Source of the DNA: Thermoanaerobaculia bacterium
GTDB taxonomy: Bacteria; Acidobacteriota; Thermoanaerobaculia; Multivoradales; Multivoraceae
Length of the DNA stretch: 64,000 nucleotides
Assembly (NCBI GenBank): GCA_963664405.1
Contig: OY761158.1
Span: 4,352,001-4,416,000 of the forward strand
Direction of reading: 5' to 3'
The number at the start of each line of letters is the position of its first letter. Position 1 is the stretch's first letter. This document shows positions 1 to 64,000 of the stretch, one piece after another. The notes beneath the pieces are model-generated. The model was not told the DNA's origin, did no database searches, and was given only the letters and a program-made list of their open reading frames with translations. Position numbers and translations under genes: made by a program.

Positions 1-105
1 CGGGGTCTCGCAGAGAGTGCTGGGGTAGGCGTGCGGGGTCGGCGAGAGCCGGCGCGGCTCACGGATCTACCGTTCTATAAGCGACAAAGAGTGCAGGAGG
101 CGTAG
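1..105 (+). CDS. gcvT: Glycine cleavage system T protein, C-terminal fragment (5' end outside window)
   Basis: Frame 1 reads ...VGVRGRREPARLTDLPFYKRQRVQEA*, matching the GcvT C-terminal V.RG...A....PFYKR pattern; lies directly upstream of gcvH. Confidence 0.75.
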   Translation, partial: RGLAESAGVGVRGRREPARLTDLPFYKRQRVQEA

Positions 106-106
106 A

Positions 107-496
107 GTGGCGAACTTTCCCCAGACCTTTCTCTATTCGAGTGAGCACGAGTGGCTGGAGGTCGAAGAGGAGACGGCGAGCCTCGGCATTACGGACTTTG
201 CCCAATCCGAGCTCGGCGACGTCGTCTTTGTGGAGTTACCGTCGGTTGGCAATAGCTTTGCCGAAGGAGACGAGATCGGAACGATCGAGTCGGTCAAGGC
301 GGTGGCAGAGATCTATACGCCGGTTTCCGGCGAGATCATCGAAATCAACGAGGACCTGGACGACCACCCTGAGATGGTCAACCAAGATCCCCACGGCTCT
401 GGCTGGCTGGTGCGGTTGCGCCTCGCCCAGCCCGATGAGACTGCCAGCCTGATGAACGCGGAGGACTACGGGCGCTTCGTGGAGAGCGTCGAGTAA
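107..496 (+). CDS. gcvH: Glycine cleavage system H protein
   Basis: HEW, GITDFAQSELGDVVFVELP, lipoyl-Lys motif ESVKA, VNQDP.G.GW. Confidence 0.97.
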   Translation: MANFPQTFLYSSEHEWLEVEEETASLGITDFAQSELGDVVFVELPSVGNSFAEGDEIGTIESVKAVAEIYTPVSGEIIEINEDLDDHPEMVNQDPHGSGWLVRLRLAQPDETASLMNAEDYGRFVESVE

Positions 497-506
497 GGGC
501 GGGGTC

Positions 507-920
507 TTGGTCTTGCGCCGTGTCGAGCTGATCCTGGTGGCCTTCTTCTTTGCGACCTGGGGCGTGGATTGCCTCGCCCTCTTGGGGCTGGTCGAGATCA
601 GTGGCAGCCTGGAGATCGGGCTCTACCCCCTTTATTCAATGGCAGCGGCGACGGGCTGGATCGCGGGCAATATCTATGTTCCCAGGACACGTCGGCTGCC
701 ACGCGAGCTGCGTCGCCGATTCCTCTGGGTCTATTTCGTTGGCCCGGTCGGATTGATGTATCTGTTGCGCGCGATGGCGACCGAGCAGAGTCAACAGCAG
801 GCGCCGCTCGTGCCGTTGTATGGCCTCGGAGTCTTTACCGTTCTCTTTCTGGTGCCGGTTGTGCTCAAGCGGTCGCCGCGTCACGCCACCTTCAGACTCG
901 GCGGTCGTGACGAGGACTAG
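507..920 (+). CDS. Hypothetical membrane protein (about 4 TM segments)
   Basis: 137-aa ORF with hydrophobic stretches, co-directional with gcvH. Confidence 0.7.
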   Translation: MVLRRVELILVAFFFATWGVDCLALLGLVEISGSLEIGLYPLYSMAAATGWIAGNIYVPRTRRLPRELRRRFLWVYFVGPVGLMYLLRAMATEQSQQQAPLVPLYGLGVFTVLFLVPVVLKRSPRHATFRLGGRDED

Positions 921-1081
921 ACCAGCGTTTCCAAAGTTGGTGCACATAGCTCGAGGTCATTCTGTTCGCTGGCCAGGCGCGGCGACGCAGGCATATTGGG
1001 CAATATGTCGAGGAGGCGCAACGCCGCCAGCGGGCAGAAGGGGCCGAGATTTGTACGCGAACCTTGGAGACGCTGGTCTAG
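917..1081. repeat. 165-bp CTAG-bounded MITE-like hairpin element, copy A
   Basis: Terminal inverted repeats CTAGACCAGCGTTTCCAAAGTT...AACCTTGGAGACGCTGGTCTAG; inverted copy at 21751-21915 with 13 mismatches in 165 bp by manual alignment. Confidence 0.9.
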
Positions 1082-1108
1082 GATCCTCCGGTGGTACCAT
1101 GACGCGTC

Positions 1109-1903
1109 GTGTCATTGTGCCGAATCGATAGAATTTGTACCGATCTCGGCCGCCGCGGACCGATTCTGGTGGCCTTTTCCGGCGGGGTCGACTCTGGCCT
1201 GGTCGCGGCACTCAGCTATCGCGCTCTCGGCGCCGACGCCTTGGCGGTAACCGCCGCCGCGGAGACGATGGCCGGCCGTGAGCTGGATCAGGCCCGTCGT
1301 CTGGCTGCTGAAATAGGTATTGCACACGAGGTTGTCACCTACAGCGAGCTCGACAATCCAGAGTTCGTCGCCAACCCGAGCTTCCGCTGTTATGTCTGTC
1401 AGGGGATGCGCATGGACTCGATGACCGAGCTGGCCGGTCGGCGAGGCTATGCGACCGTCTGTGACGGTACCAACGCTTCCGATCCTGGTCCCAATCGGCC
1501 CGGTCTGGAGGCGATTACTGAGCGTGGCGTTTACAGTCCGCTGCTCGCCCATAGGGTTCTCAAGGCCGAAGCGCGAGCGATGAGCCAAAGCCTCGGATTG
1601 TCGGTTTGGAACCGGCCGCAAAACGCGTGTCTCTCTTCGCGGATTCCGCACGGCCAGCTGGTGACCTTGGAGCGCCTTCGTCGCGTCGAGGTGGCGGAGG
1701 AGGTCCTCTACGATCGGGGCTTTCGAGTGGTGCGGGTGCGCAACGACGGTGGCCACGCCAGGGTCGAGGTCGGCGCAGACGAGCTCGAGAGGCTGGCGCA
1801 ATTGTGGCCCCAGATCTCTCCGGAGCTCCTCGCCCTCGGCTTCCACGAAGTCGCTCTGGCAGAGAAGGGCTACCGTTCCGGCGGCGCCGACCTCGCTTCC
1901 TGA
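1109..1903 (+). CDS. larE: LarE-family ATP-dependent sulfur transferase (PP-loop)
   Basis: AFSGGVDS PP-loop, RCYVC, DGTNASD, RPGL, SPL, ACLSSRIP.G, RVR...ARVEV. Confidence 0.9.
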   Translation: MSLCRIDRICTDLGRRGPILVAFSGGVDSGLVAALSYRALGADALAVTAAAETMAGRELDQARRLAAEIGIAHEVVTYSELDNPEFVANPSFRCYVCQGMRMDSMTELAGRRGYATVCDGTNASDPGPNRPGLEAITERGVYSPLLAHRVLKAEARAMSQSLGLSVWNRPQNACLSSRIPHGQLVTLERLRRVEVAEEVLYDRGFRVVRVRNDGGHARVEVGADELERLAQLWPQISPELLALGFHEVALAEKGYRSGGADLAS

Positions 1904-1915
1904 ACGCTGGTCTAG
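1903..1915. repeat. Solo 13-bp end of the CTAG-bounded element
   Basis: AACGCTGGTCTAG is identical to the last 13 nt of copy B (21903-21915) and is the reverse complement of 917-929. Confidence 0.7.
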
Positions 1916-2952
1916 CCTCGACTCCTGCCACTACGCTCCAGCAGCATGGCGTCTCCGTAGGAGTAGAACCGGTAACCCTCTCGTGCCGCCTCTTGATAGG
2001 CGGCCAGAACGCGCTCGGTGCCGGCGAAGGCGCATACGAGCATCAGCAGAGTCGAGCGCGGGAGATGGAAGTTGGTGAAGAGAGCGTCCACCACCTCGAA
2101 GCGAAAGCCCGGTCGAATGAAGAGATCGGTTGCTGCCTCACCGGGCTGGAGTCGACCGCCTCCCTTCGAGACCGCCGACTCGAGTGCGCGAACTACGGTG
2201 GTGCCGACAGCGACGATCCGTCTGCCTTCGGCTCGGGCTCGATTGATGGTTTCGCACGCGCCTGGGTCGAGAGCGTAGCGCTCTGTGTGCATGTGGTGGT
2301 CGTCGATGTGGTCGGCGGAGACCGGACGGAAGGTGCCTATCCCTACGTGAAGAGTGATCTCGGTGGTTGCGATGCCGGCCGCGGTGAGGGCGGAGAGCAG
2401 GTCGCGGCTGAAGTGGAGGCCTGCGGTTGGGGCCGCGATGGCTCCGGGCTCGCGCGCGTAGACCGTCTGGTAGCGCTCGGCGTCTTCCGGTTCCTCCGCC
2501 CGTCCCAGGTATGGGGGCAAAGGGATGTGACCTACGCTCTCTAGGAGCCCTTCGATCTCGCGATCGAAACTGAGCTCGCAGAGGCCTTGGGTAGCGGGTC
2601 TCTCGATGCGCGCTCTCAGCCCCCCCTCGAGCAAGAGCTCTACGCCGGCGCGGAGCCGCTTGGCGGGCCGAGCCAGTGCGGTCCAGTGCTTCGGCCTCAG
2701 CTTCTCGCTCAGCAATAACTCGATCTCTCCTCCGCTGCCGACCCGCCGGGCAAAGAGACGCGCCCGAATCACACGGGTGTTGTTGAGAACGAGTAGGTCC
2801 CCTTGGCGGAGTAGCCGAGGCAGGCGATCGACGCTCTGGTGGCGGTCGGAAGGAGGGCCCTCGAGTACCAACAACCGACTGCTCCCGCGGGGCGCCGGCC
2901 TCTGCGCGATCTGCTCGGCGGGCAGGTGAAATTCGAAGTCTTCGGTGCGCAA
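1912..2952 (-). CDS. queA: S-adenosylmethionine:tRNA ribosyltransferase-isomerase
   Basis: DFEFHLP.EQIAQ, NNTRVI.ARL, PLPPY, YQTVYA, AAPTAGLHF, TNFHLPRSTLL, YRFYSYGDAM; TTG start inferred at 2952. Confidence 0.97.
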   Translation of the reverse strand: MRTEDFEFHLPAEQIAQRPAPRGSSRLLVLEGPPSDRHQSVDRLPRLLRQGDLLVLNNTRVIRARLFARRVGSGGEIELLLSEKLRPKHWTALARPAKRLRAGVELLLEGGLRARIERPATQGLCELSFDREIEGLLESVGHIPLPPYLGRAEEPEDAERYQTVYAREPGAIAAPTAGLHFSRDLLSALTAAGIATTEITLHVGIGTFRPVSADHIDDHHMHTERYALDPGACETINRARAEGRRIVAVGTTVVRALESAVSKGGGRLQPGEAATDLFIRPGFRFEVVDALFTNFHLPRSTLLMLVCAFAGTERVLAAYQEAAREGYRFYSYGDAMLLERSGRSRG

Positions 2953-2993
2953 ATCAGATTTACCCAGGGACCCAACTGGTATCGTTGAGGGTG

Positions 2994-4382
2994 ATGGCAA
3001 AGGACGCCCGAGCGCGGTTTTCTCGACGACTTCTGGTCGGCACTGTTGTCGTGGGTGTCCTCATCCTCTGCAATCTCGGCCTTTTCGGGATGCTGCTCTT
3101 CCGCTCGCTGTCGGAGCAGGAGCTTCGAAGGGTGTTGGGAGAGACCCGCACCGAAGCGGAAGAACTGGCTTCACAGCTCGCCGGAGAGGTCGAGAGGGAA
3201 GGGGCGGATCTCTTCACCGCCATCGTACAAGAGCAGGAGACCCAGACCTATATCGACCGAGTGCTGACTCAGAGAGAGATCGTCGAGACTGTGCGGATCT
3301 TTGATAGCGCCGGAACTCTGGTCTTCGAGAAGCGGGAGGAGAGCAGCGAGTCGGCGGACGAGAGCGCCGATCTCGGCCTCGATGAGCCGAGCTCAGTGCA
3401 GACCAAGGTCTTGCGCACAGAGACGCCGTACGAAGTGTTGGAGGTTCCGGTGGGAAAGGTCGGCTCCTTTGTCATTGGTCTCAGCAAGACCGAGCTCGAT
3501 CGCAGAGTTCAAGTGCTGCGCGGGGAGCTCATCCGCACCGCGGCGCCGATCGCCGTCTTGACGGTGGTTCTCCTCGTCGGCGCCTACATTCTCATTCTGT
3601 GGTTGGTGCGCCGAGGGCGCAAGCTCGAGGGGCGAGCGAGAGAGGCGGAACAGCTCGCCTACGTGGGCACCCTCGCATCGGGGCTTGCTCACGAGATCAG
3701 GAGTCCTCTGAATAGCCTCAACCTCAACATGCAGATGCTCGAGGAGGAAGCGGGAGAGCGAGAAGGTTCCTCGCGGCAGCGGATCCTTTCGATTGCGAGA
3801 TCGGAGATCACCAGACTAGAGAACCTGGTCACAGACTTTCTGTCTTACGCTCGCCCGCGACCTCTAGAGATCTGTAGAGTTCGGGCAGTCGATCTTCTGC
3901 ACCGTGTGAAGAGCGTTCTCTCCGGGGAGCTTCGGGCGGGCTCTGTCGAGCTCGAAGTGGTCGACTCCACGGGTGGCGCCGAAGTGGAGGTGGATGTCGA
4001 TCAGCTCAGCCAGCTGCTGCTGAATCTAGTGCAGAATGGGATCTTCGCGGCCGAGAAGAGCGGACGCTTGCCGCACATTCGACTGCTTGCGGAGCGCCTG
4101 GGTGGACGTCTACGTCTTTCTGTCGAAGACAACGGCGGCGGCATCCCGGAGGCTGAAAGAGATCGCATTTTCGATCTCTTCTACTCGACGCGCAAGGGTG
4201 GCACTGGGCTCGGGTTGGCGATTGCCCGCCGGATCGCTCATGAGCATGGCGGAGAGCTGTCGGTCGACAGCCCATCGTCGGGGGGCACGCGTGTAGGCGT
4301 CGCTCTGGCCGCCGCCGGAAAGTCGCGACTCCACGACGTCGCCGAGATGGAGGGCCGCCCGAGTATCAGCGCGATTTCTTGA
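2994..4382 (+). CDS. Membrane sensor histidine kinase; no cognate response regulator adjacent
   Basis: Two TM segments, H-box LAHEIRSPL, N-box NLVQNG, DNGGGI, FYSTRKGGTGLGL. Confidence 0.92.
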   Translation: MAKDARARFSRRLLVGTVVVGVLILCNLGLFGMLLFRSLSEQELRRVLGETRTEAEELASQLAGEVEREGADLFTAIVQEQETQTYIDRVLTQREIVETVRIFDSAGTLVFEKREESSESADESADLGLDEPSSVQTKVLRTETPYEVLEVPVGKVGSFVIGLSKTELDRRVQVLRGELIRTAAPIAVLTVVLLVGAYILILWLVRRGRKLEGRAREAEQLAYVGTLASGLAHEIRSPLNSLNLNMQMLEEEAGEREGSSRQRILSIARSEITRLENLVTDFLSYARPRPLEICRVRAVDLLHRVKSVLSGELRAGSVELEVVDSTGGAEVEVDVDQLSQLLLNLVQNGIFAAEKSGRLPHIRLLAERLGGRLRLSVEDNGGGIPEAERDRIFDLFYSTRKGGTGLGLAIARRIAHEHGGELSVDSPSSGGTRVGVALAAAGKSRLHDVAEMEGRPSISAIS

Positions 4383-47052: not shown

Positions 47053-47128
47053 GCCGGCATAGCTCAGCGGCTAGAGCAGCTGACTTGTAATCAGCAGGTC
47101 CTCGGTTCGATTCCGAGTGCCGGCTCCA
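47053..47128 (+). tRNA. tRNA-Thr(TGT)
   Basis: GCCGGCA acceptor stem, GCTGA-CTTGTAA-TCAGC anticodon arm, GGTTCGATTCC T-arm, encoded CCA. Confidence 0.97.
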
Positions 47129-48171
47129 TCTAAATATAATGTTTTCATAACTTTAGGGATACTACGATCATTCGCAACTGTGGTAGCCGTATTTCTCGTA
47201 ATCGGTTCGTAATCAGGAAGAGGCGAAAAAGCTGTGCACAGATGGAATTCGCGGGCCCTTGGCCATAGCGGCCTGAATTGGGGCTGTTTGGCTGAGTTGG
47301 TGAGCTTGAGGTGAGCAAGGCCATCAGCCCTGATCCAGTGACGCGTCTATACCAAAAACTTGAAGCCCTACTGGTCCAAGGCTGTTCTGCGTTGTCTTCG
47401 CCGCCAGCCTTTCTAGACGATCGATCACATCCCTAAACTGGAGCACAGCTCGAGTGTCTGGATCGCGCCAGGTTCGATTTCCGTGGTGGGACACAACCAG
47501 CACCCCCCAGCGCCTCGAGGCCGGTTTCAGGTAGTTCTCGGCAAGCTGCTTAGTCAAGGCCGATTCGAGCCGGCGTACTGACCATCCCTTCTCTCTTCCA
47601 CCGTGCTTTACCTCAATCGCTGCTTCCGCAAGGGCAGCAGTTGCGGACACCACAATGTCGGGCTTGTTGCCACCTGAGACTTCGGTCTCGCGGTGAACGT
47701 GATAGCGACCGTTGGAGCGGAGCCTCACTTGCTCAGAGAGCCACTCTTGAACCTGGGCCTCGCTCTCCGCCTTTTGGAGTAAGTCTCGGGAGGACGAGTC
47801 GCCGCTTGTCATATCGTCTTGGACGTCCGAGAGAACGCCGAGCAACACGTTTAGGAGCCTCCCTCCAGTGGTTACTGGTGCTAGGTAAGTCCGCTCGAAG
47901 GCGGGAACCTCAGTAGCCTTCCACCGTGAGAGTGATCAGGGTAGTTGATGGGATTCGCCTCTGTTCTAGTCACGGTAGTCGAGGGAAGAGCGTACTGGTC
48001 CCTCGGATAGCGTGATCAAAGCGGGCAAAAGAGCCGGCATCATCCGCGGCCACCGGGCGCGCCGTTGTTGTGGGGGGGGAGTGAGGTGCCCTCCGGGGGT
48101 TGACGTCCCCTCGGAGGGCGTGTCTTCTTTCGTTGAATTTAAAAACGAAAGGCCGAAAGGAGACAGCCCTC

Positions 48172-48738
48172 TTGTACCAGACCCTGCTTCAGGATGCCAG
48201 TTTCTACGATCTACTGTTGCGACTCGACGAGGATCTAGCGGAGAAGACTCGCGCCCTAGGCTGCGAATGCGGTGGGCGTTTGCACCAGGCTCACTATCCA
48301 CGTAAGCCTCGCGGAGGGCCCGAGGAGCTGCGCAGAAGGACCTCGTTGCGGCTGAGCTATTGCTGCTCGGTGGAGGGGTGCCGGCGTCGTCAGACGCCTG
48401 CGTCCTTTCGTTTTCTGGGCCGAAAGGTGTACTTCAGCGTGTTGGTACTTCTGGTCCCAGTGCTGCGGGAAGGGGCCAAGGGAGAGCGGCTGCATCGTCT
48501 ACAGGAATTGTTTCAGGTGAGCGCACGTACGGTGCGCCGTTGGCAGAGATGGTGGCGAGAGGACTTCGGTCTCAGCCCGGTCATGACTCGCTTTCAAGGC
48601 TTTCATGCCGAGCCGATCCAGCGGCAAGACTTGCCGGGCTCTCTGCTCCTAGTCTTTCGTCAATTGTCGCCGGCAGGCGAGAGGGTGCTGGCGGTGATTC
48701 GCGCCCTATTGGTCGGGCCCTCTGTGCTAGCTGTGTGA
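48172..48738 (+). CDS. Transposon accessory protein (Cys/His-rich with HTH-like segment)
   Basis: CECGGRLH, SYCCSVEGCRRR, VSARTVRRW..WW; TTG start behind AAGGAG. Confidence 0.75.
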   Translation: MYQTLLQDASFYDLLLRLDEDLAEKTRALGCECGGRLHQAHYPRKPRGGPEELRRRTSLRLSYCCSVEGCRRRQTPASFRFLGRKVYFSVLVLLVPVLREGAKGERLHRLQELFQVSARTVRRWQRWWREDFGLSPVMTRFQGFHAEPIQRQDLPGSLLLVFRQLSPAGERVLAVIRALLVGPSVLAV

Positions 48739-48844
48739 GGGTCGCCGGAAACCCGCAGAAGATGCGTCTCGACTCGCCGAGAAGCGGGCCTTAAGGTCTC
48801 TGTTCTCGCCGCCGATTGAAGGAATCGGCGCCCAGGAGAGGGAG

Positions 48845-50269
48845 ATGAGCCATCGAGCCTCGACGCAACAACGCTGGGCGCAGTTTCGCTTCAGTGTGGT
48901 GGGTGAGCTGTTGGCTGCGCCTCCCGCACCGGGACATCTGCAGGTGGAATTGTCTCGACTCTCCCAGAAGGCCTGGCGCCATCCGATCACGGAGAAGGCG
49001 GTGTACTTTGCCCGCTCGACGATTGAGCGTTGGTACTACACGGCCCTGGCCGGTCGCGATCCGATCGGGGCGCTACAACGCCGATCGAGAAGCGACAGCG
49101 GCCAAGCGCGCGCCATCCCAACCCGGATCGCCGAGCTGATCCACACGCAATACAAGGCCCACCCGACGTGGAGCTACCAGCTCCATTGGGACAATCTGGA
49201 CGTGGTGCTAAAAGAGCGACCGGAGCCAGGGAAGGTGCCTTCCTACTCCACCCTGCGCCGCTTCATGATCGCGCACGGTTGGCCCAAACAACGACGCACG
49301 AAGGGAAAGGATCGCAGCACTGCCTCCGGTGCCCCTGCGCGCGAGAAGCGCAGCTACGAAGCCGAGTACGTCAACGGGCTCTGGCACCTCGACTTCCACC
49401 ACGGCTCGCGCAAGATCCCGAGCTCCGCAGGGACCTGGGAAGTACCGATGCTGCTGGCGATTCTCGACGATCACTCCCGGCTCACCTGCCATCTGCAGTG
49501 GTATCTGCACGAGACCGCCGAGTGTCTGATCCACGCTCTGATCCAAGCCTTCATCAAACGCGGACTGTGCCGCTCACTGCTCACCGATAACGGCAGCGCC
49601 ATGATCGCCGACGAGACCACCGAGGGGCTCCTACGCCTCTCCGTCGTCCATCGCACCACATTGCCCCGGAGCCCCTATCAAAACGGGAAACAAGAAAACT
49701 TCTTCTCTCGAGTCGAATCCCGCCTCCTCGCCATGCTCGAAGGACACGCGGATCTCAATCTGGCATTGCTCAATGAGGCGACGCTGGCTTGGGTGGAGAT
49801 GGAGTATCACCGCACCGTCCATTCCGAGACCGGCCAGACGCCGCTCGACCGCTTTCTCGAGGGTCCCTCCGTCTCTCGGATCTGCCCCAGCCTGGACGAG
49901 CTGCGCTTCGCCTTCACCGCCGCTCGAAAGCGCACCCAGCGCCAAAGCGACGGCACCATCAGCCTCGACGGCACCCGTTTCGAGATCCCCTCTCGTTTCC
50001 ATCATCTCAACCGGATCTCGGTGCGATACCAGAGCTGGGAGAAAAGCTCCGTCTTCATGGTCGACGAAAGCTCCGACGTCCCACTCGAGCGCCTCTACCC
50101 CCTCGACAAGGCAAGAAACGCTTCCGGCATCCGCCGCCCGATCCAACCCCAGAGCACCGACGAGCCGACAGGCCCGGAGCCTGGCATCGCACCCCTACTC
50201 CGCAAACACATGGCGGAGTACGCCGCCACCGGGCTCCCGCCCGCCTACCTCAAAAAGGAGACACCGTGA
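48845..50269 (+). CDS. DDE transposase/integrase with Mu-transposase-like C-terminal domain
   Basis: LWHLD, LTDNGS, NGKQE..F, DGTISLDG.RFEIP. Confidence 0.93.
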   Translation: MSHRASTQQRWAQFRFSVVGELLAAPPAPGHLQVELSRLSQKAWRHPITEKAVYFARSTIERWYYTALAGRDPIGALQRRSRSDSGQARAIPTRIAELIHTQYKAHPTWSYQLHWDNLDVVLKERPEPGKVPSYSTLRRFMIAHGWPKQRRTKGKDRSTASGAPAREKRSYEAEYVNGLWHLDFHHGSRKIPSSAGTWEVPMLLAILDDHSRLTCHLQWYLHETAECLIHALIQAFIKRGLCRSLLTDNGSAMIADETTEGLLRLSVVHRTTLPRSPYQNGKQENFFSRVESRLLAMLEGHADLNLALLNEATLAWVEMEYHRTVHSETGQTPLDRFLEGPSVSRICPSLDELRFAFTAARKRTQRQSDGTISLDGTRFEIPSRFHHLNRISVRYQSWEKSSVFMVDESSDVPLERLYPLDKARNASGIRRPIQPQSTDEPTGPEPGIAPLLRKHMAEYAATGLPPAYLKKETP

Positions 50270-51108
50270 ACAACCAGAAACTACTGGCACTCTTCGGACT
50301 GAAGTGGAACCCCTTTACCCCCAACATCCCCGTCGAAGCGCTGTGGCGACACCCGCATCTCGACCACTTCTGCTGGCGCCTGGAGACCCTCGTCCACGAC
50401 GGTGGCTTCGCATTGATCTCCGGTGATCCCGGCACCGGCAAGTCGGTCGCTCTACGCACCCTCGCTCACCACCTTCAACACCTGCCCGACCTGCGCACCG
50501 GAGTCCTCACGCGGCCACAGAGCAGTCTCGCCGACTTTTACCGTGAGCTCGGACAGCTCTTCGGGGTCCCGCTCAATCCACACAACCGATGGGCCGGATT
50601 CAAAGCCCTCCGACAGACCTGGCTCTCCCATGTCGATGCCACCCATCAAAGACCCGTACTCTTGATCGACGAAGCCCAGGAGCTCGCCGCCAACGTGCTG
50701 GCCGAACTGCGCATCCTCGCCTCTGCGGACTTCGACTCACGCTCCATCCTCACCGTCGTCCTGTGCGGCGACTCCCGACTCACACAGCTCTTCCGACGAG
50801 ACGATTTCCTACCCGTCGCCAGCCGCATCCGCGTACGCCTCCTCCTCGACTACCTGCCCCCAGAGACGTTGGCCGAATGGCTCCAGCACTCCCTGACACA
50901 AGCCGGAAACCCCAGTCTCCTCGACCACGAGGTCATCACCACTCTCGCCGAGCACGCCGCCGGAAACCTCAGAGTACTCGCACACATGGCCAACGAGCTC
51001 CTCGCCATGGCCGCCAAAGAAGAGCTACCCAACATCGATCAGAAGCTCTACCTCGAGGTCTTCTCGCCACCTACCTCCCAGCGCTCTCCCAGGAAAGCCC
51101 GTGCCTGA
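50266..51108 (+). CDS. ExeA-like AAA+ ATPase (transposition helper)
   Basis: FGLKWNPF, GDPGTGKS, VLLIDEAQ, GNLR; GTGA overlap with the transposase. Confidence 0.92.
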   Translation: MNNQKLLALFGLKWNPFTPNIPVEALWRHPHLDHFCWRLETLVHDGGFALISGDPGTGKSVALRTLAHHLQHLPDLRTGVLTRPQSSLADFYRELGQLFGVPLNPHNRWAGFKALRQTWLSHVDATHQRPVLLIDEAQELAANVLAELRILASADFDSRSILTVVLCGDSRLTQLFRRDDFLPVASRIRVRLLLDYLPPETLAEWLQHSLTQAGNPSLLDHEVITTLAEHAAGNLRVLAHMANELLAMAAKEELPNIDQKLYLEVFSPPTSQRSPRKARA

Positions 51109-51448
51109 CTCCCCATCCGCCCAGCAACAACGACGGCACCTCCAGAGCGTCCTCGAGCTCTATCGACGACATCCCCAAACCACCGGACGAGTCAGAAACG
51201 CCGATCGCCGCCTCGCCGTACATCTCTATCGAAACGGCGTTACCCTCGACACCATCAACGCTGCCTTACTACTCGTCGCCGCCAGGAGATGCAACGAGGC
51301 ACACACCACAACCCCCATCCAGAGTCTCCACTACTTCCTCCCCGTCATCCGAGAGATTCGCGATAGACCCCTCGATAACGGCTACCTCCGGTACCTTGAA
51401 ACTCTCATCCGCGACAGCAGCCAAGACCCAGACCATCATTTACTGTGA
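51101..51448 (+). CDS. Hypothetical protein inside the transposon
   Basis: 115-aa ORF overlapping the ATPase stop and ending at the right TIR. Confidence 0.65.
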   Translation: MPDSPSAQQQRRHLQSVLELYRRHPQTTGRVRNADRRLAVHLYRNGVTLDTINAALLLVAARRCNEAHTTTPIQSLHYFLPVIREIRDRPLDNGYLRYLETLIRDSSQDPDHHLL

Positions 51449-54400
51449 TCAGCCCGCCATCGATTACCGTGATCACTCTCACCACCGCGGAGGTTCAGCA
51501 TCCTGCTCTGCCTTCTCGCGTGCTAAAGCGATGAGGCAACTAGAGGACAGCGGGAAGCCCTTCTCCTCCGAAAGCGAAAGAACAGCTTGGTAGGCGTCTG
51601 GGCCTCGACGGTCAACAAGCGAAGAGAACAGTCTTTCACGGGCCCACTCGGCCTCATCCCTCTCATCAGGGCTATAGGCACCCTCGTGGACTGCGTCGTC
51701 TTTCGTGTTTACCTCTCGGTATGCGATGCGCACCAATGAAGAAAGCGCCGGAACCGACATAGAAGTGGGCGCCTCCGCTGCCAGGCCGAACTCTCGACCG
51801 AAAAGGACGGCCAAGCCTGCTTCCGTTGTAGCAGCCTTGGTATCGATCCACTTGATCAGCTGGGTCGTAGCCTGGTCGGTATCCGCCAGGAACAGCAGGG
51901 CAATAGAGCGTACAGCGCGATCGACATCATCGACCTTCAATGCTGCTCGAAATCGGCGGCGAGCGACCGCCACAACCCGACGCCTCTCCTCATCGGAGAA
52001 CTGCATTCGTCGCAGCGCCTGAATGCCTCGATCGAGCGCTCTCAGTGACGTCGCGTCCTCGCTCATCATGATCTCGAAGAGGGGGCCTTGTACAGAAGGA
52101 GGGAAGGGCGCACCCTTATCGCGATAATGGGTGAGCAGTTCGACCTGGCCCCCATCATGGCTTTTCCACTCATCTTCTAGAGCCTTGCTCACGACCGGTA
52201 GCACGGATACACCGCGTTGATCGATGAGCTTGTCGAGCCATTCGGGATAGCCCAGTTCACTCATGCAAGCGTGCCTTGCAGCGCAGGCGGCATCGGCGGC
52301 GCTGAGACCCGCTGGCCAGTTCGACTCCTCGCGAGCTTCGACCCCTATGCCTGCAAAGGAAAGGACGCTCGGATGCTTCCTTGAGAAACCACGATCGGTA
52401 CGCTCAGGGGCTTCAGGTCGTGTAATGCGCCAGAGCACCTTCATCCCTTCACAATAGGCCTCGGCTACGGTCCCGCCGAATGCCGGTGCCGGTGCCAGCA
52501 ATTGCCACTGCAAGGCTGCTTGCTCTGCGTTCTTTCCAGTCTTCTTCTGCAGCCACTGGGTTAGCCAGTAAAGTCTGGACGACCCTGTCTCCCAATCTGC
52601 CAATCGAGCTGGATCGGTTAGTCCGGCAGGGTCTGCTTGAAGCTCTTCCCTGAACCGGATCCACTGCGCCTCGGTCTCTTTTCTTTCCTCAGCCTCGCGG
52701 TCTTGCTTCTGTTGGGTGTTCCTTTCGTGCTCGAGCGCCGCTTCTAGCTCTGTCTCTGACGGAGGTGCGAGATAGCCGTCGAGATCGGCCGCCAGTTCAT
52801 TGCAGCCCGCAGCGAGCTCTCCTAGACGAGAGGATTCAGAGTCGAGTTCGCCAGCTGCGCGCAAGATTCGGGCGAGAGCGCTAAGAGCCACCTGTCGATC
52901 AGCAACCAGCGGGCGATGCGAGTAGTCTTCAAAGAGCCAGCCCACGTCATGGGGCCCAAGCTCCCATAGAACGTCACCGCACCCCCAGACATGCGAAAGC
53001 CTCGTTGGGTATTCCTCGGCGTGGCGGTTGTCGTTTAGCCGCGTCTCCTCGACGTCAGCCCAGAAAAGTGTGCGCTGCAGTTGCGAATCACCGGTCACGA
53101 GCGCTCTTAGGGCAGGTTCTTCTTGGTCCCAGTTGCGCTGACTGTCAGCCCGCTCGACAGCCATGAGGAAACGTACAAGCACTCCAGGGGGGTCAGCGTT
53201 CCCCATGTCTATAACAACGTCGCGAGCGATCTTTGCCATACGCCTTGCGATGCCGACGTGGCGAGCTGAGATACGTCCGTGCCTGGACTGGAAGGGTGGT
53301 GAGAGACTCAAGTCTGAGAGGCCGACGATCAGTCTCTCGCGTGCGTCTGAATCAGGGCAAACTTCCCACAGCTTCGCGACTTCGCTCTCGAAGCCACCTA
53401 ACGATCCTGGCTCCGCCGACGGCGTTAGCTCGACCAAGCGAAGCACCTCGTCGACATCAAGGTGTTCTGGAAAGAGAACCCCCACGAATTCCGGTGCGAG
53501 AACGGCACTCGCCGGACCGGCGGCTCCCTTCAACCAGCCTGCTGCTTGCCGTAACCCGTCGGTGTCCTCACACGCGCTGAGTGCCTCAAGCGCGACGATG
53601 CGAAAGTGGTCTCCGCACCCTTGGTCGACAGCTACTTTACGGGCGAGGTGGGCGCAGGCCGCTATCCTCCCTTCCCTCACGATGCGGAGGAGGTTTGTAC
53701 GGAAGAACTCTCGCTTGTTGAGACCCCAGCAGCGCTCGATGGTCGAGGCGAGTTCAGGGTCGGAGAACATCCAAAGGGCTCGTTCATCGGGAATGTAATC
53801 TGCCCTCCGGCCCTCCGGTCCCGCCTTCGCGTAATTGAGCAGGAGGGTCTTCTTTGCATCGAGGGGCAGCGAGCCCGGGTCTCCGTAGCGCAAAGCACGA
53901 TCGGTGCGCGTCGGATGATTTCGGCGCGGATGTCGGTCTGACTCAGCGACAGCCATGCTGCAGCGCCTTGCAGTGACGGTACGAGAGCTTCGACTCCGTA
54001 GACGTCCTCGAAGAGCAAGTCCTTCACAACGTGGCGGGGGCAGCCTCCCTCGAGGAGGCGTTTGAGCCAGCTCGCCATCAGGTACTCCCTAGTACCGCGA
54101 TGGTGGAAGCGGATACGCCCATAGGTGGCTTGCTCGAAGACGCCTCTTCGTAGCAGTGCATTCCGCTCCGCGTCCGTCCAGCTGTCGAGCACTTCGGCCG
54201 AATCAATGGCACCGGCAGCAAGCGTCGGATCAGCCTCTTGGCCCGATGCTCGAATAGTTGAACTCTTCACCAAGGCCAATGCAGCTGACAGTCGCTCGGC
54301 GCCGCGCCGCGATTTGTCGTTGGCGAGATCTCGGTTGTCTGCTCGGTATCGGTCGTGCTCACGCAGCTTCCGATTCACGCTGTTCTCGGTCATTCTCTCC

Positions 54401-55441
54401 AGGCTGTCAAAGCCGTTCCAGGCCTTCCAGTGCTCAGCGAGATCGAGAAGATCCCCCGGCCGTTGCGCCAGGTTGTCGAGCCCCTGCTGCACAATCGCTT
54501 GGACGAATACCGCAGGTTCCTCTGCTCCGGCACTCGCAGCAAGTAGCCGCATTTGTTCAGGATCGAGAGGCACAAGCCTGACCACCAGAGTGTCGTCGGC
54601 TTCCTCGGTACGCCGTGGTAAGCCGAAGACCGAGTTCGTCGGCACCTTGCTCCCAAATATGGGGCCGAGCAGATACGAATCGTCCTCCTCAGCGGAGATT
54701 GGAGCTTGCTCCTTCCATGCTGGTAGAAGCCGCCTGAATTCAGCTAGGTCGGTACGGCCCTTCCAGTCGCTTCCGCGACAAGAGATGTATACATGTGCAC
54801 GGTGTAGAGCTCCAGAGACTTCACGCGCAAAGTGCGACAGAGCTCTTTGCAGGCTCTTGCCATGGAGTTGCGCTTCATCTACAGAATCCAGAAAGAACCA
54901 CCCCTCCTCGCTCCCACTCTCCTTCCACTGCTCGAACTTCCTTGCTGCTTGTGGATCAAGGGCAGCGTCGAAGCCATAGTCGGCAAGGTCCTCGATGCGG
55001 ACGAAGAACCCCGACTTGCCCTCAGCGAGCAACGACGCTGCACGGTTCCGGAACTCCTCTGTCTTCCCGCTCGAGGCCTCAGCGAGCAACACCACGCGAC
55101 GGTGCGTGAGTAGGCCAGACCAGTGGAGCGAACCCGATAGCCCTAAGAGTCTGTGAACCTCCAGACTCCACTCCTCGTCCTTCTCAACACGAACGAAGCG
55201 ACGATCAAGTTCGACAAATTCCATACTGGAGGTCACCTACGACTCACTGTCTGGAATCCTCTCACGCCCCGCCTGGCAGCTGCACCGTCGCCCGCACCTC
55301 TTTCAGCATGCGCTCCGCGCTTTACACCTGCCAGCGCCATTCGCCACAATCAACTGGGCGAATCGAGCAATCGCGCAGACTCGCTGACTGCGGGTTCCCC
55401 TAACGATCGACGGTGGCGTACAGAGGGGGCGGCAGGAATCT

Positions 55442-56020
55442 ATGATCGTTTTCATCCAGGGCCCCCCAGCATCCGGCAAGTCGACACTGGGTATGGGGCT
55501 CAGCGCGAAGCTAAACATCCCCCATGTCAGCAAAGATGACATCAAAGAAAATCTGTTCGATTCATTGGGGGCGCGCGATGCCGCGTGGTCACGCGAGTTG
55601 GGGGCGGCGTCGAATCGACTGCTCTTCCTACTGGTGCGAAAGTACGCGTCGCTTTCGCGGGACATCATCATCGAGAGCAACTTCTCGAGAGATGAAGTAG
55701 CAGAAATCGAACGGACTCTCGCAGGCGGAAGTCAGGACGTCTGTGATGTGTTCCTGACTGCGCCGCCCGATGTACTGATGGCGCGTTTCCGGGAGCGCTG
55801 GGAGTCCGGGCGGCGTCATCCGGGACATGTGGACGATCAGCGATATGAAGACATCGAGAGCTACATTGCCGAACAGAAGTCGCGGCCGATGGGGCTCGGG
55901 ATAGTCCAGATCCGGATCAACACCGAACGCGAAGGCCCGGACTCCGTTCTGTCGACCGTACTTGCACAGCTCGCGGCGGTCGCCGCATCTCAGGGAGCTT
56001 CGACCGGGCCCAGCAAATGA
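55442..56020 (+). CDS. P-loop small-molecule kinase (AAA_33-like)
   Basis: IQGPPASGKST, SKDDIKE.L, IIESNF, R...R...RHPGH. Confidence 0.85.
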   Translation: MIVFIQGPPASGKSTLGMGLSAKLNIPHVSKDDIKENLFDSLGARDAAWSRELGAASNRLLFLLVRKYASLSRDIIIESNFSRDEVAEIERTLAGGSQDVCDVFLTAPPDVLMARFRERWESGRRHPGHVDDQRYEDIESYIAEQKSRPMGLGIVQIRINTEREGPDSVLSTVLAQLAAVAASQGASTGPSK

Positions 56021-58582: not shown

Positions 58583-59311
58583 ATGTCTATCTCAAGGGAG
58601 AGCATCAAGGGACTGTGCTTCGATTTCGGCAATACGCTCGTGGAATTTGGACCCAGGCAGGTAGCCGCACAGTACGAAACATTTGAGCGAACGTTGACTG
58701 GCCTGTTCGGTCCCTGCGACGCAGCGCGCTTCAAGGCCGTGCGAGATCGCCAGCGCGCTGCCCCGCTCAGCAACGGCTATAAGGAGAGCGAATTGACGTC
58801 GCTCTCGCAGGAGTTGATTCGGGAGCTCTATGACGCGGAGCCGGACGAGAACCACATCGAAGTCCTAAATCAGACGCGTTGCGATTCGGTAGCTGATGCC
58901 ATTGAACTTAACGATGAGGTGTTGCCGCTCTTGCGCGAGCTCCGGCGGCGGTACCGCCTGGGATTGTTGTCGAACTACCCCTGCGGTCGCTCTGTTCGCA
59001 ACGTCCTCGCCAAGGTGGGCCTGTTGGACATCTTCGAGGTGGTTGTGATCTCGGGCGATGTCGGGTACGTGAAGCCTCACACCAGGCCGTTCGAGGCCAT
59101 GTTGTCGCAGATGGGCCTTGCCCCCTCGGAGTGTCTATACGTCGGCGACAACTGGCTGGCGGATATTCAAGGGGCAAAGCAGATCGGGATGCGGGCGGTT
59201 CTAACGACTCAGTACACACCCCACACAATCTTCAAGCCCGTGGTGGGCGATCACTTACCCGACGCACGCATCGCACACCTAGACGAACTTCGGGCGCTGC
59301 TTCTGAGCTGA
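58583..59311 (+). CDS. HAD-superfamily hydrolase
   Basis: FDFGNTL, LLSN, KP, YVGDNW.ADIQGA. Confidence 0.9.
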   Translation: MSISRESIKGLCFDFGNTLVEFGPRQVAAQYETFERTLTGLFGPCDAARFKAVRDRQRAAPLSNGYKESELTSLSQELIRELYDAEPDENHIEVLNQTRCDSVADAIELNDEVLPLLRELRRRYRLGLLSNYPCGRSVRNVLAKVGLLDIFEVVVISGDVGYVKPHTRPFEAMLSQMGLAPSECLYVGDNWLADIQGAKQIGMRAVLTTQYTPHTIFKPVVGDHLPDARIAHLDELRALLLS

Positions 59312-62500: not shown

Positions 62501-62896
62501 ATGCGACCGGACTACCGACTCTTCGACTGTGCTCGATGCCGTCGGCGTATCTCGCTGTGCTCGCACTGTGACCGTGGCCAGCGTTACTGCCGGGCTTGTG
62601 CTCTGGTGGCTCGTCGGGAATCGACTCGGGCGGCCGGCCATCGGTACCAGCGAAGCCTCCGAGGTCGGCATTGTCATGCCGCCCGTCAGGCCCGCTACCG
62701 TCGGCGCCAGCGCGAGCGGGCAGAGAAAGTGACGCATCAGGGTACCCCAGGCGGTACTTCGGGGAGGACACTGTGTCGGATCGAGACTCCGAGGCGCGAA
62801 GTGCGCTACGACCCGAGGAATCCGCGATGCATGCAGTGTGGAGAGGCCTGCCGAGAGTTTGTGCGAACGAGCTTTCGTCGTTGCCGACGGAGATAG
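62501..62896 (+). CDS. Cys-rich putative zinc-finger protein of the element
   Basis: CARC...CSHCDRGQRYCRAC, ARQARYR, KVTHQG, CMQCG. Confidence 0.75.
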   Translation: MRPDYRLFDCARCRRRISLCSHCDRGQRYCRACALVARRESTRAAGHRYQRSLRGRHCHAARQARYRRRQRERAEKVTHQGTPGGTSGRTLCRIETPRREVRYDPRNPRCMQCGEACREFVRTSFRRCRRR

Positions 62897-62900
62897 GGGC

Positions 62901-64000
62901 GTGATCGACGCACAGCTGCGCGGGGAGATCCGTCGTCTGTTCCTGGTCGAGAAGTGGAAAGTCGGCACGATCGCTCGACAGCTACAGCTGCACCCCTCAA
63001 CCGTGCGCCGGGCGCTGGAGAAGTCCGGCGTGCTACCCCAGCAGCGACGAGGGAGGATGATCGATCCTTACCTGCCGTTCATCGAGCAGGTGCTCGGGAC
63101 CTACCCACGACTGCCGGCGAGCCGTCTCTACACCATGGTGGTGGAGCGCGGCTATCCAGGAGGCCCGGATCAGTTTCGCCACCTGGTGGCCTCGATGCGA
63201 CCGAAGCCCCAGCGCGAGGCGTTTCTCTCGCTGCGCATGCTGCCAGGAGAGCAGGCGCAGGTCGACTGGGGCCACTTCGGTCGGCTCCGCGTCGGCCGGG
63301 CACATCGTCGGCTCTATGCCTTCGTCTTCGTGCTGTCGTTCTCGCGCACGGTCTTCGTGCACTTCACCCTCGACACTCGTCTCGAAACCTTCTTGCACGC
63401 TCACCAGCTGGCCTTCCACTACGTCGACGGCGTCGTCAGGACCGTTCTGTACGACAACCTGCGAACCGCGGTGATCGAGCGGCAGGGAACCGCGGTGCGC
63501 TTCCATCCCGTGCTGCTCGATTTCGCCAGCCACTACGGCTTCCTTCCCACCGTCGCCGCGGTGGCTCGGGGAAATGAGAAAGGCCGCGTCGAGCGCGCAA
63601 TCCGCTTCCTGCGAAGCTCGTTCTTCGGCGCCCGAACGGTGAGCGATTTGGATCGTCTGAATCGGCAGGTCCTGGAATGGTGCCAGAGGTCGCAGCGCAG
63701 ACCCTGGCCGCAGGACCGACAGCGAACCGTGAAAAGCGCCCTGGCCCAGGAACGACCTCGACTGCTTGAGCTTCCCGGAGACGACTTCGAAACCGACCTG
63801 CGACTGGAGATCAAGGTCAGAAAGACGCCGATCGTGCGCTTCGACCTCAACGACTACTCGGTGCCGCACAGTCATGTGCAGAGGACCGTCACGCTCCTCG
63901 CCAGCGAGCATCGGGTGCGGATCCTCGATGGCCAGGAGCTCCTCGCCGAGCACCCTCGCTCGTACTCCCGGGGCGAGCAGATCCTCGATCCTCAACACCT
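62901..64000 (+). CDS. istA: IS21-family transposase IstA (3' end outside window)
   Basis: Manual translation from GTG 62901: MIDAQLRGEIRRLF...TIARQL..H.STVRRAL, PGEQAQVDWG, YDNLRTAV, NEKGRVER, FDLNDYSVP. Confidence 0.92.
   Translation, partial: MIDAQLRGEIRRLFLVEKWKVGTIARQLQLHPSTVRRALEKSGVLPQQRRGRMIDPYLPFIEQVLGTYPRLPASRLYTMVVERGYPGGPDQFRHLVASMRPKPQREAFLSLRMLPGEQAQVDWGHFGRLRVGRAHRRLYAFVFVLSFSRTVFVHFTLDTRLETFLHAHQLAFHYVDGVVRTVLYDNLRTAVIERQGTAVRFHPVLLDFASHYGFLPTVAAVARGNEKGRVERAIRFLRSSFFGARTVSDLDRLNRQVLEWCQRSQRRPWPQDRQRTVKSALAQERPRLLELPGDDFETDLRLEIKVRKTPIVRFDLNDYSVPHSHVQRTVTLLASEHRVRILDGQELLAEHPRSYSRGEQILDPQH

Follow-up and report, generated by a model that had tools for sequence, protein, structure and literature searches.

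The minus strand of positions 47324–55236 in a 64,000-nucleotide window (the whole stretch analyzed, from contig OY761158.1 of a Thermoanaerobaculia bacterium) carries three open reading frames (ORFs), at 53677–55236 (519 aa), 51479–53956 (825 aa), and 47324–47848 (174 aa). A transposon of 3,555 bp lies on the plus strand at 47927–51481, between the second ORF and the third. The three ORFs are the remnants of a single gene of about 1,446 codons, which is broken by a one-base frameshift and by the insertion of the transposon. The gene is very probably a pseudogene of a HyoA-type single-gene antiphage STAND protein, HyoA being most probably Hypnos (Avs10).

The unity of the gene had been proposed in an earlier reading of the window (the original prediction), and it is upheld here by the homologues and by the frame. 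Full-length homologues of 1,447–1,738 aa come from many bacteria, and all of those examined (18/18) carry the three pieces fused and colinear in one protein. Repair of both lesions restores one frame from the ATG at 55224 to the stop at 47324, as proposed, with a length of 7,901 - 3,555 - 6 + 1 = 4,341 nt, or 1,446 aa plus the stop. The homologues, whose alignments open opposite residue 5 of the GTG-started ORF, are consistent with ATG 55224 as the start. Segment 1 of the reconstructed gene (53893–55224, minus strand) comprises codons 1–444 and the NACHT NTPase, with Walker A (GKT), Walker B (FFLDSVDE), the ISCR motif, and winged-helix/helical subdomains. Segment 2 (51482–53892, minus strand) is the middle region, which has about 800 aa, ends at the insertion point, and is presumed to be a helical sensor; it derives from the 825-aa ORF, which is 32–42% identical to 16 of the 18 full-length homologues across 97% of its length. 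Segment 3 (47324–47920, minus strand; 198 aa and the stop) consists of a linker and a C-terminal PD-(D/E)xK nuclease-like domain. The motifs quoted in the original prediction, LAEASSGKT, FFLDSVDE, ISCR, RFHHRGTREYL, and RETEV...PDIVV...IEVK, are all present in the ORF translations.

The first lesion lies at 53890–53896 of the minus strand, where one base is missing relative to the homologues in a short run of T (plus strand 53892–53894). ORFs 1 and 2 overlap out of frame at this site. In all 18 homologues the homology stops at residue 448–450 of ORF 1 and resumes at residue 22–25 of ORF 2. The consensus of the family is REPLxLLxHGDPGSLPL, and the window reads RAPIVL followed, in the other frame, by (L)RYGDPGSLPL; therefore exactly one base is lacking in the CTTTG run at 53892–53894, with no residue lost. 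Both the consensus and the breakpoints thus confirm the restoration of a T at 53892–53894 that had been suggested. The site was also compared with Logan contigs over window positions 51440–55300. The frameshift is unchanged in contigs from four public runs of two studies, in which 51454–55300 is identical to the window with 0 differences and 0 gaps, and the one-base state is therefore not specific to this assembly.

The second lesion is the transposon, which has TG...CA ends and terminal inverted repeats of 26 nt that are 88% complementary. By Pfam and NCBIfam matches it carries three genes, encoding a helix-turn-helix (HTH) protein (48100–48738), an rve DDE transposase (48845–50269), and an AAA_22 ATPase (about 50270–51108). 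The element is Mu/IS481-like, the best NCBIfam match of the transposase being IS481 at 123.6 bits, below the family cut-off. Five full-length copies with 99–100% identity are present in the genome; since each aligns over positions 1–3555, the ends of the element are fixed to the base. The insertion is flanked by a target-site duplication CCACCG, the left copy at 47921–47926 and the right copy at 51482–51487, which supplies segment 2 with its final two residues (R, W). The copy in the HyoA-like gene has this 6-bp duplication, and the other four copies (in L005–L008) have 5-bp duplications. The frame survives excision of the element together with one CCACCG: ...CGG TGG closes the 825-aa ORF, and position 47920 shares the frame of the 174-aa ORF (72 nt, or 24 codons). 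The linker of 23–24 residues that results has the length of the gap in the homologues, for instance between residues 1254 and 1279 of the homologue P0002. The proposal that the transposon and one CCACCG copy interrupt the gene is therefore confirmed by the ends, the duplication, and the restored frame.

No uninterrupted allele was seen in the Logan contigs, which does not show that such an allele is absent. None of the contigs reaches 31 letters to either side of the junction of transposon and gene at once; the longest contig there begins 28 nt within the element. The contigs end at the transposon repeat, and because the element is multi-copy, loose ends at its end match the flank of another copy. 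The last 51 nt of the transposon also match 15 further sites in the genome at 86–88% identity, which suggests related elements or miniature copies derived from the end.

The gene is dead in this strain. Past codon 444 the one-base deletion throws the gene out of frame, and the 3.55-kb transposon parts the presumed sensor from the nuclease-like domain. Translation stops shortly past the NACHT module, and the nuclease domain lies 3.5 kb away beyond the transposon. The original prediction of an acting sensor-nuclease does not hold for a gene disrupted twice, which cannot act in this strain. Alternatively, the gene could still be functional if the frameshift were an assembly error or were bypassed, or if the pieces worked as a split system. 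The catalytic residues are indeed intact in the pieces, a GTG in the C-terminal piece could serve as a start, and lesions at two sites only suggest that the decay is recent. Nevertheless, the one-base state occurs without a difference in the contigs of the four runs, and the ends of the transposon are exact and flanked by the duplication. The homologues also argue against a split protein. The 16 shorter ones examined (801–1,255 aa) align from residue 1 and end early, as truncations, and all 18 long ones are fused, so there is no sign of a natural split form. A gene that still functions is thus very unlikely. Among the shorter homologues, two of four tails end out of frame (P0026 and P0090), and frameshift decay of HyoA-like genes is therefore not unique to this genome. 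In these two proteins, on contigs of 939 kb and 31 kb, homology is lost after about 725–794 residues. Another homologue, P0001, is a protein of 1,738 aa in which a REP-associated tyrosine transposase (103 bits) is fused ahead of the full HyoA-like protein; the likely cause is a gene-call fusion or else an insertion beside the start of the gene. The pseudogene in the window illustrates, in a clean and datable way, how an active transposon can remove a costly immune gene, the five copies of the element being 99–100% identical.

The pieces of the pseudogene retain the marks of their former domains. The N-terminal 444 residues were folded by AlphaFold with an alignment of 39 sequences, which gave a model with a predicted local distance difference test (pLDDT) score of 83.6. 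In a Foldseek search of the PDB, this model yields 77 matches at E ≤ 0.001. They are led by the NACHT modules of NLRP2, NAIP/NLRC4, NOD2, and NLRP3, with E values from 1e-8 (best 1.4e-8) to 1e-5, and the Avs4 structure 8dgf is matched at E 1.8e-5. Residues G53, K54, D113, D116, E117, and R150 are invariant among the 39 sequences; they correspond to the GK of Walker A, the D...DE of Walker B, and the arginine of ISCR. Walker A occupies residues 48–54, and the NTPase begins inside the first 50 residues. Segment 1 as modeled is a NACHT module in which the Walker A motif and the Walker B motif are both intact. The fold matches to NLR proteins and the invariant motifs bear out the placement of a NACHT/STAND NTPase at the extreme N-terminus.

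The C-terminal piece was modeled with a pLDDT of 91.4. In the numbering of the piece, the model consists of a helix (54–67), three strands (73–77, 89–93, and 99–106), a helix (115–130), and a strand (136–145). Residues E54, E78, D88, E103, and K105 are invariant in the 39 sequences, and the last four of them belong to the RETEV, PD, and IEVK motifs. VIA-align places the DNase CdiA-CT first (Z 9.2, root-mean-square deviation 3.0, 123 residues aligned), followed by LlaBIII (Z 8.4), PaqCI (8.3), BspD6I (8.2), Can2 (8.1), and BamHI (8.0). Nearly all of the 50 matches listed are nucleases of the restriction-endonuclease fold, with Z of 6–9 to many restriction enzymes. From the model, the C-terminus is predicted to be a nuclease of PD-(D/E)xK type, with a restriction-endonuclease-like alpha-beta-beta-beta-alpha-beta core and an E...D...ExK signature. 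The core fold and the signature are those of PD-(D/E)xK nucleases such as CdiA-CT EC869, the nuclease domain of LlaBIII, PaqCI, BamHI, and Can2. However, sequence identity to these enzymes is only 9–16%, and no Pfam nuclease family is matched. A sequence search of PDB chains gave nothing for the N-terminal or the C-terminal piece, the best E for the latter being 1.4. The C-terminal nuclease of the original prediction is supported by the model, which takes on the restriction-endonuclease-like fold.

The family to which the gene belongs is a named one. The NCBIfam model NF058534, "NACHT domain-containing antiphage protein HyoA", has 1,430 positions and is matched end to end by the three pieces. 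On the ORFs the matches cover positions 1–433 (461.7 bits, E 5e-138), 431–1235 (426.6 bits, E 2e-127), and 1264–1428 (144.7 bits, E 2.5e-42). When the genome is searched in six frames, the positions are 1–433 (460.9 bits), 431–1237 (427.6 bits), and 1232–1428 (159.4 bits), and no HyoA match was found in the whole genome beyond these three places. The gene shares with HyoA the length class (1,446 aa versus 1,430 positions) and the order of a NACHT module, a long middle region, and a C-terminal nuclease-like domain. Unlike a HyoA protein, it stays below the equivalog cut-off of 1,200 bits and, broken by frameshift and transposon, has no single intact ORF. Because its score is under 1,200 bits, it is filed as "HyoA-like", and on these scores it is a divergent HyoA-like member and not a HyoA equivalog. 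The antiphage role supposed for the family agrees with the annotation of NF058534 as antiphage. The practical gain is one of annotation, in that three "hypothetical" ORFs and a transposon become one disrupted HyoA/Hypnos-like antiphage gene; the wider significance is little.

HyoA is probably the Hypnos of van den Berg et al. (2024; Cell Host Microbe 32:1427), as judged from the names and from the sister model EruA (Erebus). In PMC13581612 (Nature 2026; preprint PMC12803255), Erebus, Hypnos, and bNACHT64 are brought together under the name Avs10, with reference to Kibby 2023 and van den Berg 2024. According to the same paper, Avs10 representatives kill cells upon encountering the phage major capsid protein, which has the HK97 fold, and the Avs10 sensor was modeled on the A-domain of the capsid protein. 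Mutations of the effector abolish cell killing, as stated in the preprint PMC12803255. Hypnos is also listed, in the phage paper PMC12390725, among the systems countered by an anti-defence protein. The name bNACHT64 was not found in the Kibby preprint, and none of Avs10, Hypnos, Erebus, and bNACHT64 is named in the supplementary files of PMC13581612 that were examined. If HyoA is Hypnos, the gene of the window falls within Avs10, whose members are described in PMC13581612 as STAND proteins with a helical sensor and an effector. However, the capsid trigger and the cell death come, in that paper, from representatives other than the clade of the window.

By analogy with the family, the intact protein would act in three steps. 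The middle, presumably helical, region would bind a phage protein, which for Avs10 is reported in PMC13581612 and PMC12803255 to be the HK97-fold major capsid protein. Binding would free the N-terminal NACHT NTPase to oligomerize. The oligomers would then cluster the C-terminal PD-(D/E)xK domains, with degradation of DNA and abortion of the infection. We infer the trigger, the oligomerization, and the nuclease activity of the intact protein from the family.

Two neighboring groups of antiphage proteins resemble the gene in part. EruA (NF058535, probably Erebus) is a sister NACHT antiphage model, which is matched partially, in the NACHT helical/winged-helix part (positions 129–355, 76 bits). 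However, its cut-off of 1,000 bits over 1,318 positions is not reached, the intact relatives score 151–197 bits, and membership in EruA is rejected at a score so far under the threshold. The classical antiviral STAND proteins (Avs1–Avs5 and Avs7) share the logic of a sensor, an NTPase switch, and a nuclease effector, and the Avs4 structure matches the NACHT model. Classical Avs proteins carry the effector at the N-terminus, according to PMC13581612. In contrast to the classical Avs1–5 layout of an N-terminal effector, a central NTPase, and a C-terminal sensor, the NTPase of the present gene comes first and the nuclease lies in the last ~150 residues.

This layout had been taken as a "reversed architecture", and the gene as a hidden candidate for a new system. 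A single-gene defence system that is new to the literature, with its STAND architecture reversed, could be argued from the scarcity of other matches. Pfam gave only sub-threshold matches for the gene pieces, such as nSTAND_NTPase5 at 16 bits against a cut-off of 34, no model of PADLOC 2.0 (2023) matches the three pieces, and the HyoA scores of the pieces add up to less than the curated cut-off. Nevertheless, the named antiphage profile is matched colinearly from position 1 to 1428, with E values down to 5e-138. When the C-terminal 198 residues were used as the query, 1,267 cluster representatives were obtained at E ≤ 0.001. In the 150 best listed, the position of the domain is C-terminal, whether the protein has about 1,430–1,490 aa or is shorter. 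A NACHT-first, nuclease-last order is thus the standard layout of the HyoA family and should be recognized as a known Avs10-type layout, not a new one. The Avs10 grouping is moreover published, in PMC13581612. The match to a named system removes the novelty, and a new system is highly improbable. The search for known defence systems that had been recommended turned out in two ways, without a hit to the three pieces in PADLOC and with a match to an antiphage family in NCBIfam. A look-up of the clusters of four homologues gave no informative names.

Several points weigh against reading the gene as a pseudogene of a HyoA/Hypnos protein. The summed NF058534 score, 1,033 bits for the ORFs or 1,048 bits for the six-frame search, is below 1,200 bits. 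The nearest intact relatives (P0002, P0004, P0006, and P0001) also remain below the cut-off, at 1,157–1,192 bits, and the separate scoring of fragments therefore explains the shortfall only in part; P0015 scores 960 bits. The cut-off is exceeded only by P0017 (1,264 bits) and P0018 (1,450 bits), which are more distant and 25–40% identical to the pieces of the window. The trigger and activity of the assayed Avs10 members may consequently not extend to this clade. The equation of HyoA with Hypnos is a probable one, drawn from the names and from EruA, and "HyoA" in an antiphage sense was not found in the literature searched. The lack of a PADLOC model for the three pieces points the same way. With respect to the nuclease, Foldseek returned no PDB match for the C-terminal model at E ≤ 0.001 (best OkrAI, E 0.013), and Z scores of 8–9 are in the middling range for VIA-align. 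The sensor role of the middle ~800 aa, and its helical nature, are a presumption. Finally, the Logan runs were compared as contigs, and one run may be the assembly's own sample, which makes their independence incomplete. It is also conceivable, if unlikely, that the sub-cut-off clade of the window is a distinct Avs10-type branch sensing a phage protein other than the major capsid protein, and that its repeated decay reflects a cost of autoimmunity.

The genomic setting of the HyoA-like pseudogene is a large insertion next to a tRNA gene. A tRNA-Thr(tgt) gene, identified by ARAGORN at 47053–47128 on the plus strand, lies 196 nt from the stop codon of the gene and forms the left edge of an insertion of 71.7 kb. 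Upstream of it are the core genes tsf, pyrH, and a SpoU methylase. Synteny was compared by blastn in five related genomes (G018, G020, G013, G005, and G016), and one further sequence (L031; 1,144 nt, at a contig end) was excluded as too short. In the first four, tRNA-Tyr/tRNA-Gly, or else tRNA-Thr(ggt) and tuf, come no more than a few hundred bases after tRNA-Thr(tgt). About 5 kb lies between in G016, and about 8 kb is inserted after tRNA-Gly in G005. In the genome of the window, the gap between tRNA-Thr(tgt) and tRNA-Tyr is 71.7 kb, and that between tRNA-Gly and tRNA-Thr(ggt) is another 55 kb; the parts of the cluster beyond the window correspond to window-equivalent positions 118843–119008 and 174273–175702. 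The cluster tRNA-Thr(tgt)/tRNA-Tyr/tRNA-Gly/tRNA-Thr(ggt)/tuf (thrU-tyrU-glyT-thrT-tuf) looks like a hot spot for insertion, because it holds these two large insertions and the smaller ones in G005 and G016.

The position claimed for the gene, first among the cargo of a tRNA-linked island, is borne out insofar as it is the first gene of a tRNA-adjacent 71.7-kb insertion. An integrase and an att repeat of such an island were not found. No tyrosine integrase (PF00589) occurs between genome positions 4399128 and 4470842, serine recombinases not being searched for, and no att-type repeat of the 3′ end of tRNA-Thr was found in the window or in 500 kb downstream. The nearest PF00589 match is at 4471809, just after tRNA-Gly, and therefore belongs to the second (55-kb) insertion. 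The HyoA profile matches 5 of 41 genomes including that of the window; the four matches among the 40 relatives are weak (≤95 bits), come from one genus, and are all below the cut-off. This distribution fits a horizontal acquisition of the gene, since the profile is rare and weak in the relatives and since their tRNA cluster is not interrupted by the 71.7 kb.

The 71.7-kb insertion contains IS21-like, Mutator-type, and IS6-like elements, and many S-adenosylmethionine (SAM) methyltransferases, GNAT acetyltransferases, and HAD hydrolases. It also holds an APH-family phosphotransferase, a MacB-type permease, polyamine genes, PspA, an intein-bearing RtcB, glutamate dehydrogenase, and esterases. When PADLOC was applied to 60 ORFs of the insertion, 10 had matches at E ≤ 1e-5, all partial and at the level of domains (a methyltransferase to mad2, HTH, ankyrin, an intein endonuclease, and the N-terminus of a flavoprotein), and no complete defence system was found. 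A defence association at this locus is hence not borne out in surroundings rich in insertion sequences and in genes of metabolism and modification. Such neighbors would suit a STAND NTPase that serves in housekeeping or regulation, apart from phage defence. However, the family is curated as antiphage, and its Avs10 members kill cells upon expression of capsid protein, according to PMC13581612 and PMC12803255. The profile, moreover, has no match in 36 of the 40 related genomes. The combination of a nuclease effector and loss to a transposon would also be typical of dispensable, costly defence genes. A housekeeping role is the least probable of the readings considered, and a decayed antiphage gene of HyoA type remains the preferred one.

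Other features were noted in the region and elsewhere in the genome. A small gene for an AAA_33/zeta-toxin-like kinase (55442–56020, plus strand) is divergent from the HyoA-like gene and matches Zeta_toxin at E 1.2e-5, with 25.3 bits against a cut-off of 22.3. An IS21-type element begins at 62838–63998 on the plus strand and continues in L034:3-2166; it encodes, in this order, an IstA-like transposase that has rve and Mu-transposase C-terminal domains, and IstB (211 bits). Another transposase of similar kind lies in L035:676-2220. Outside the window, in L036:8898-11450, an intein that carries a LAGLIDADG homing-endonuclease domain splits an RtcB RNA ligase gene (851 aa). Two HAD hydrolase ORFs of 242 aa with the same Pfam coordinates, at 58583–59311 and L034:17767-18492, are about 22 kb apart. 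Together with several similar methyltransferase and GNAT genes, this pair may reflect a segmental duplication inside the 71.7-kb insertion. Further along the genome, the tuf genes of the relatives match positions 4526423–4527612 and 4542589–4543785 at 76–79% identity, which points to two copies of tuf flanking the rpoB/rpoC region.

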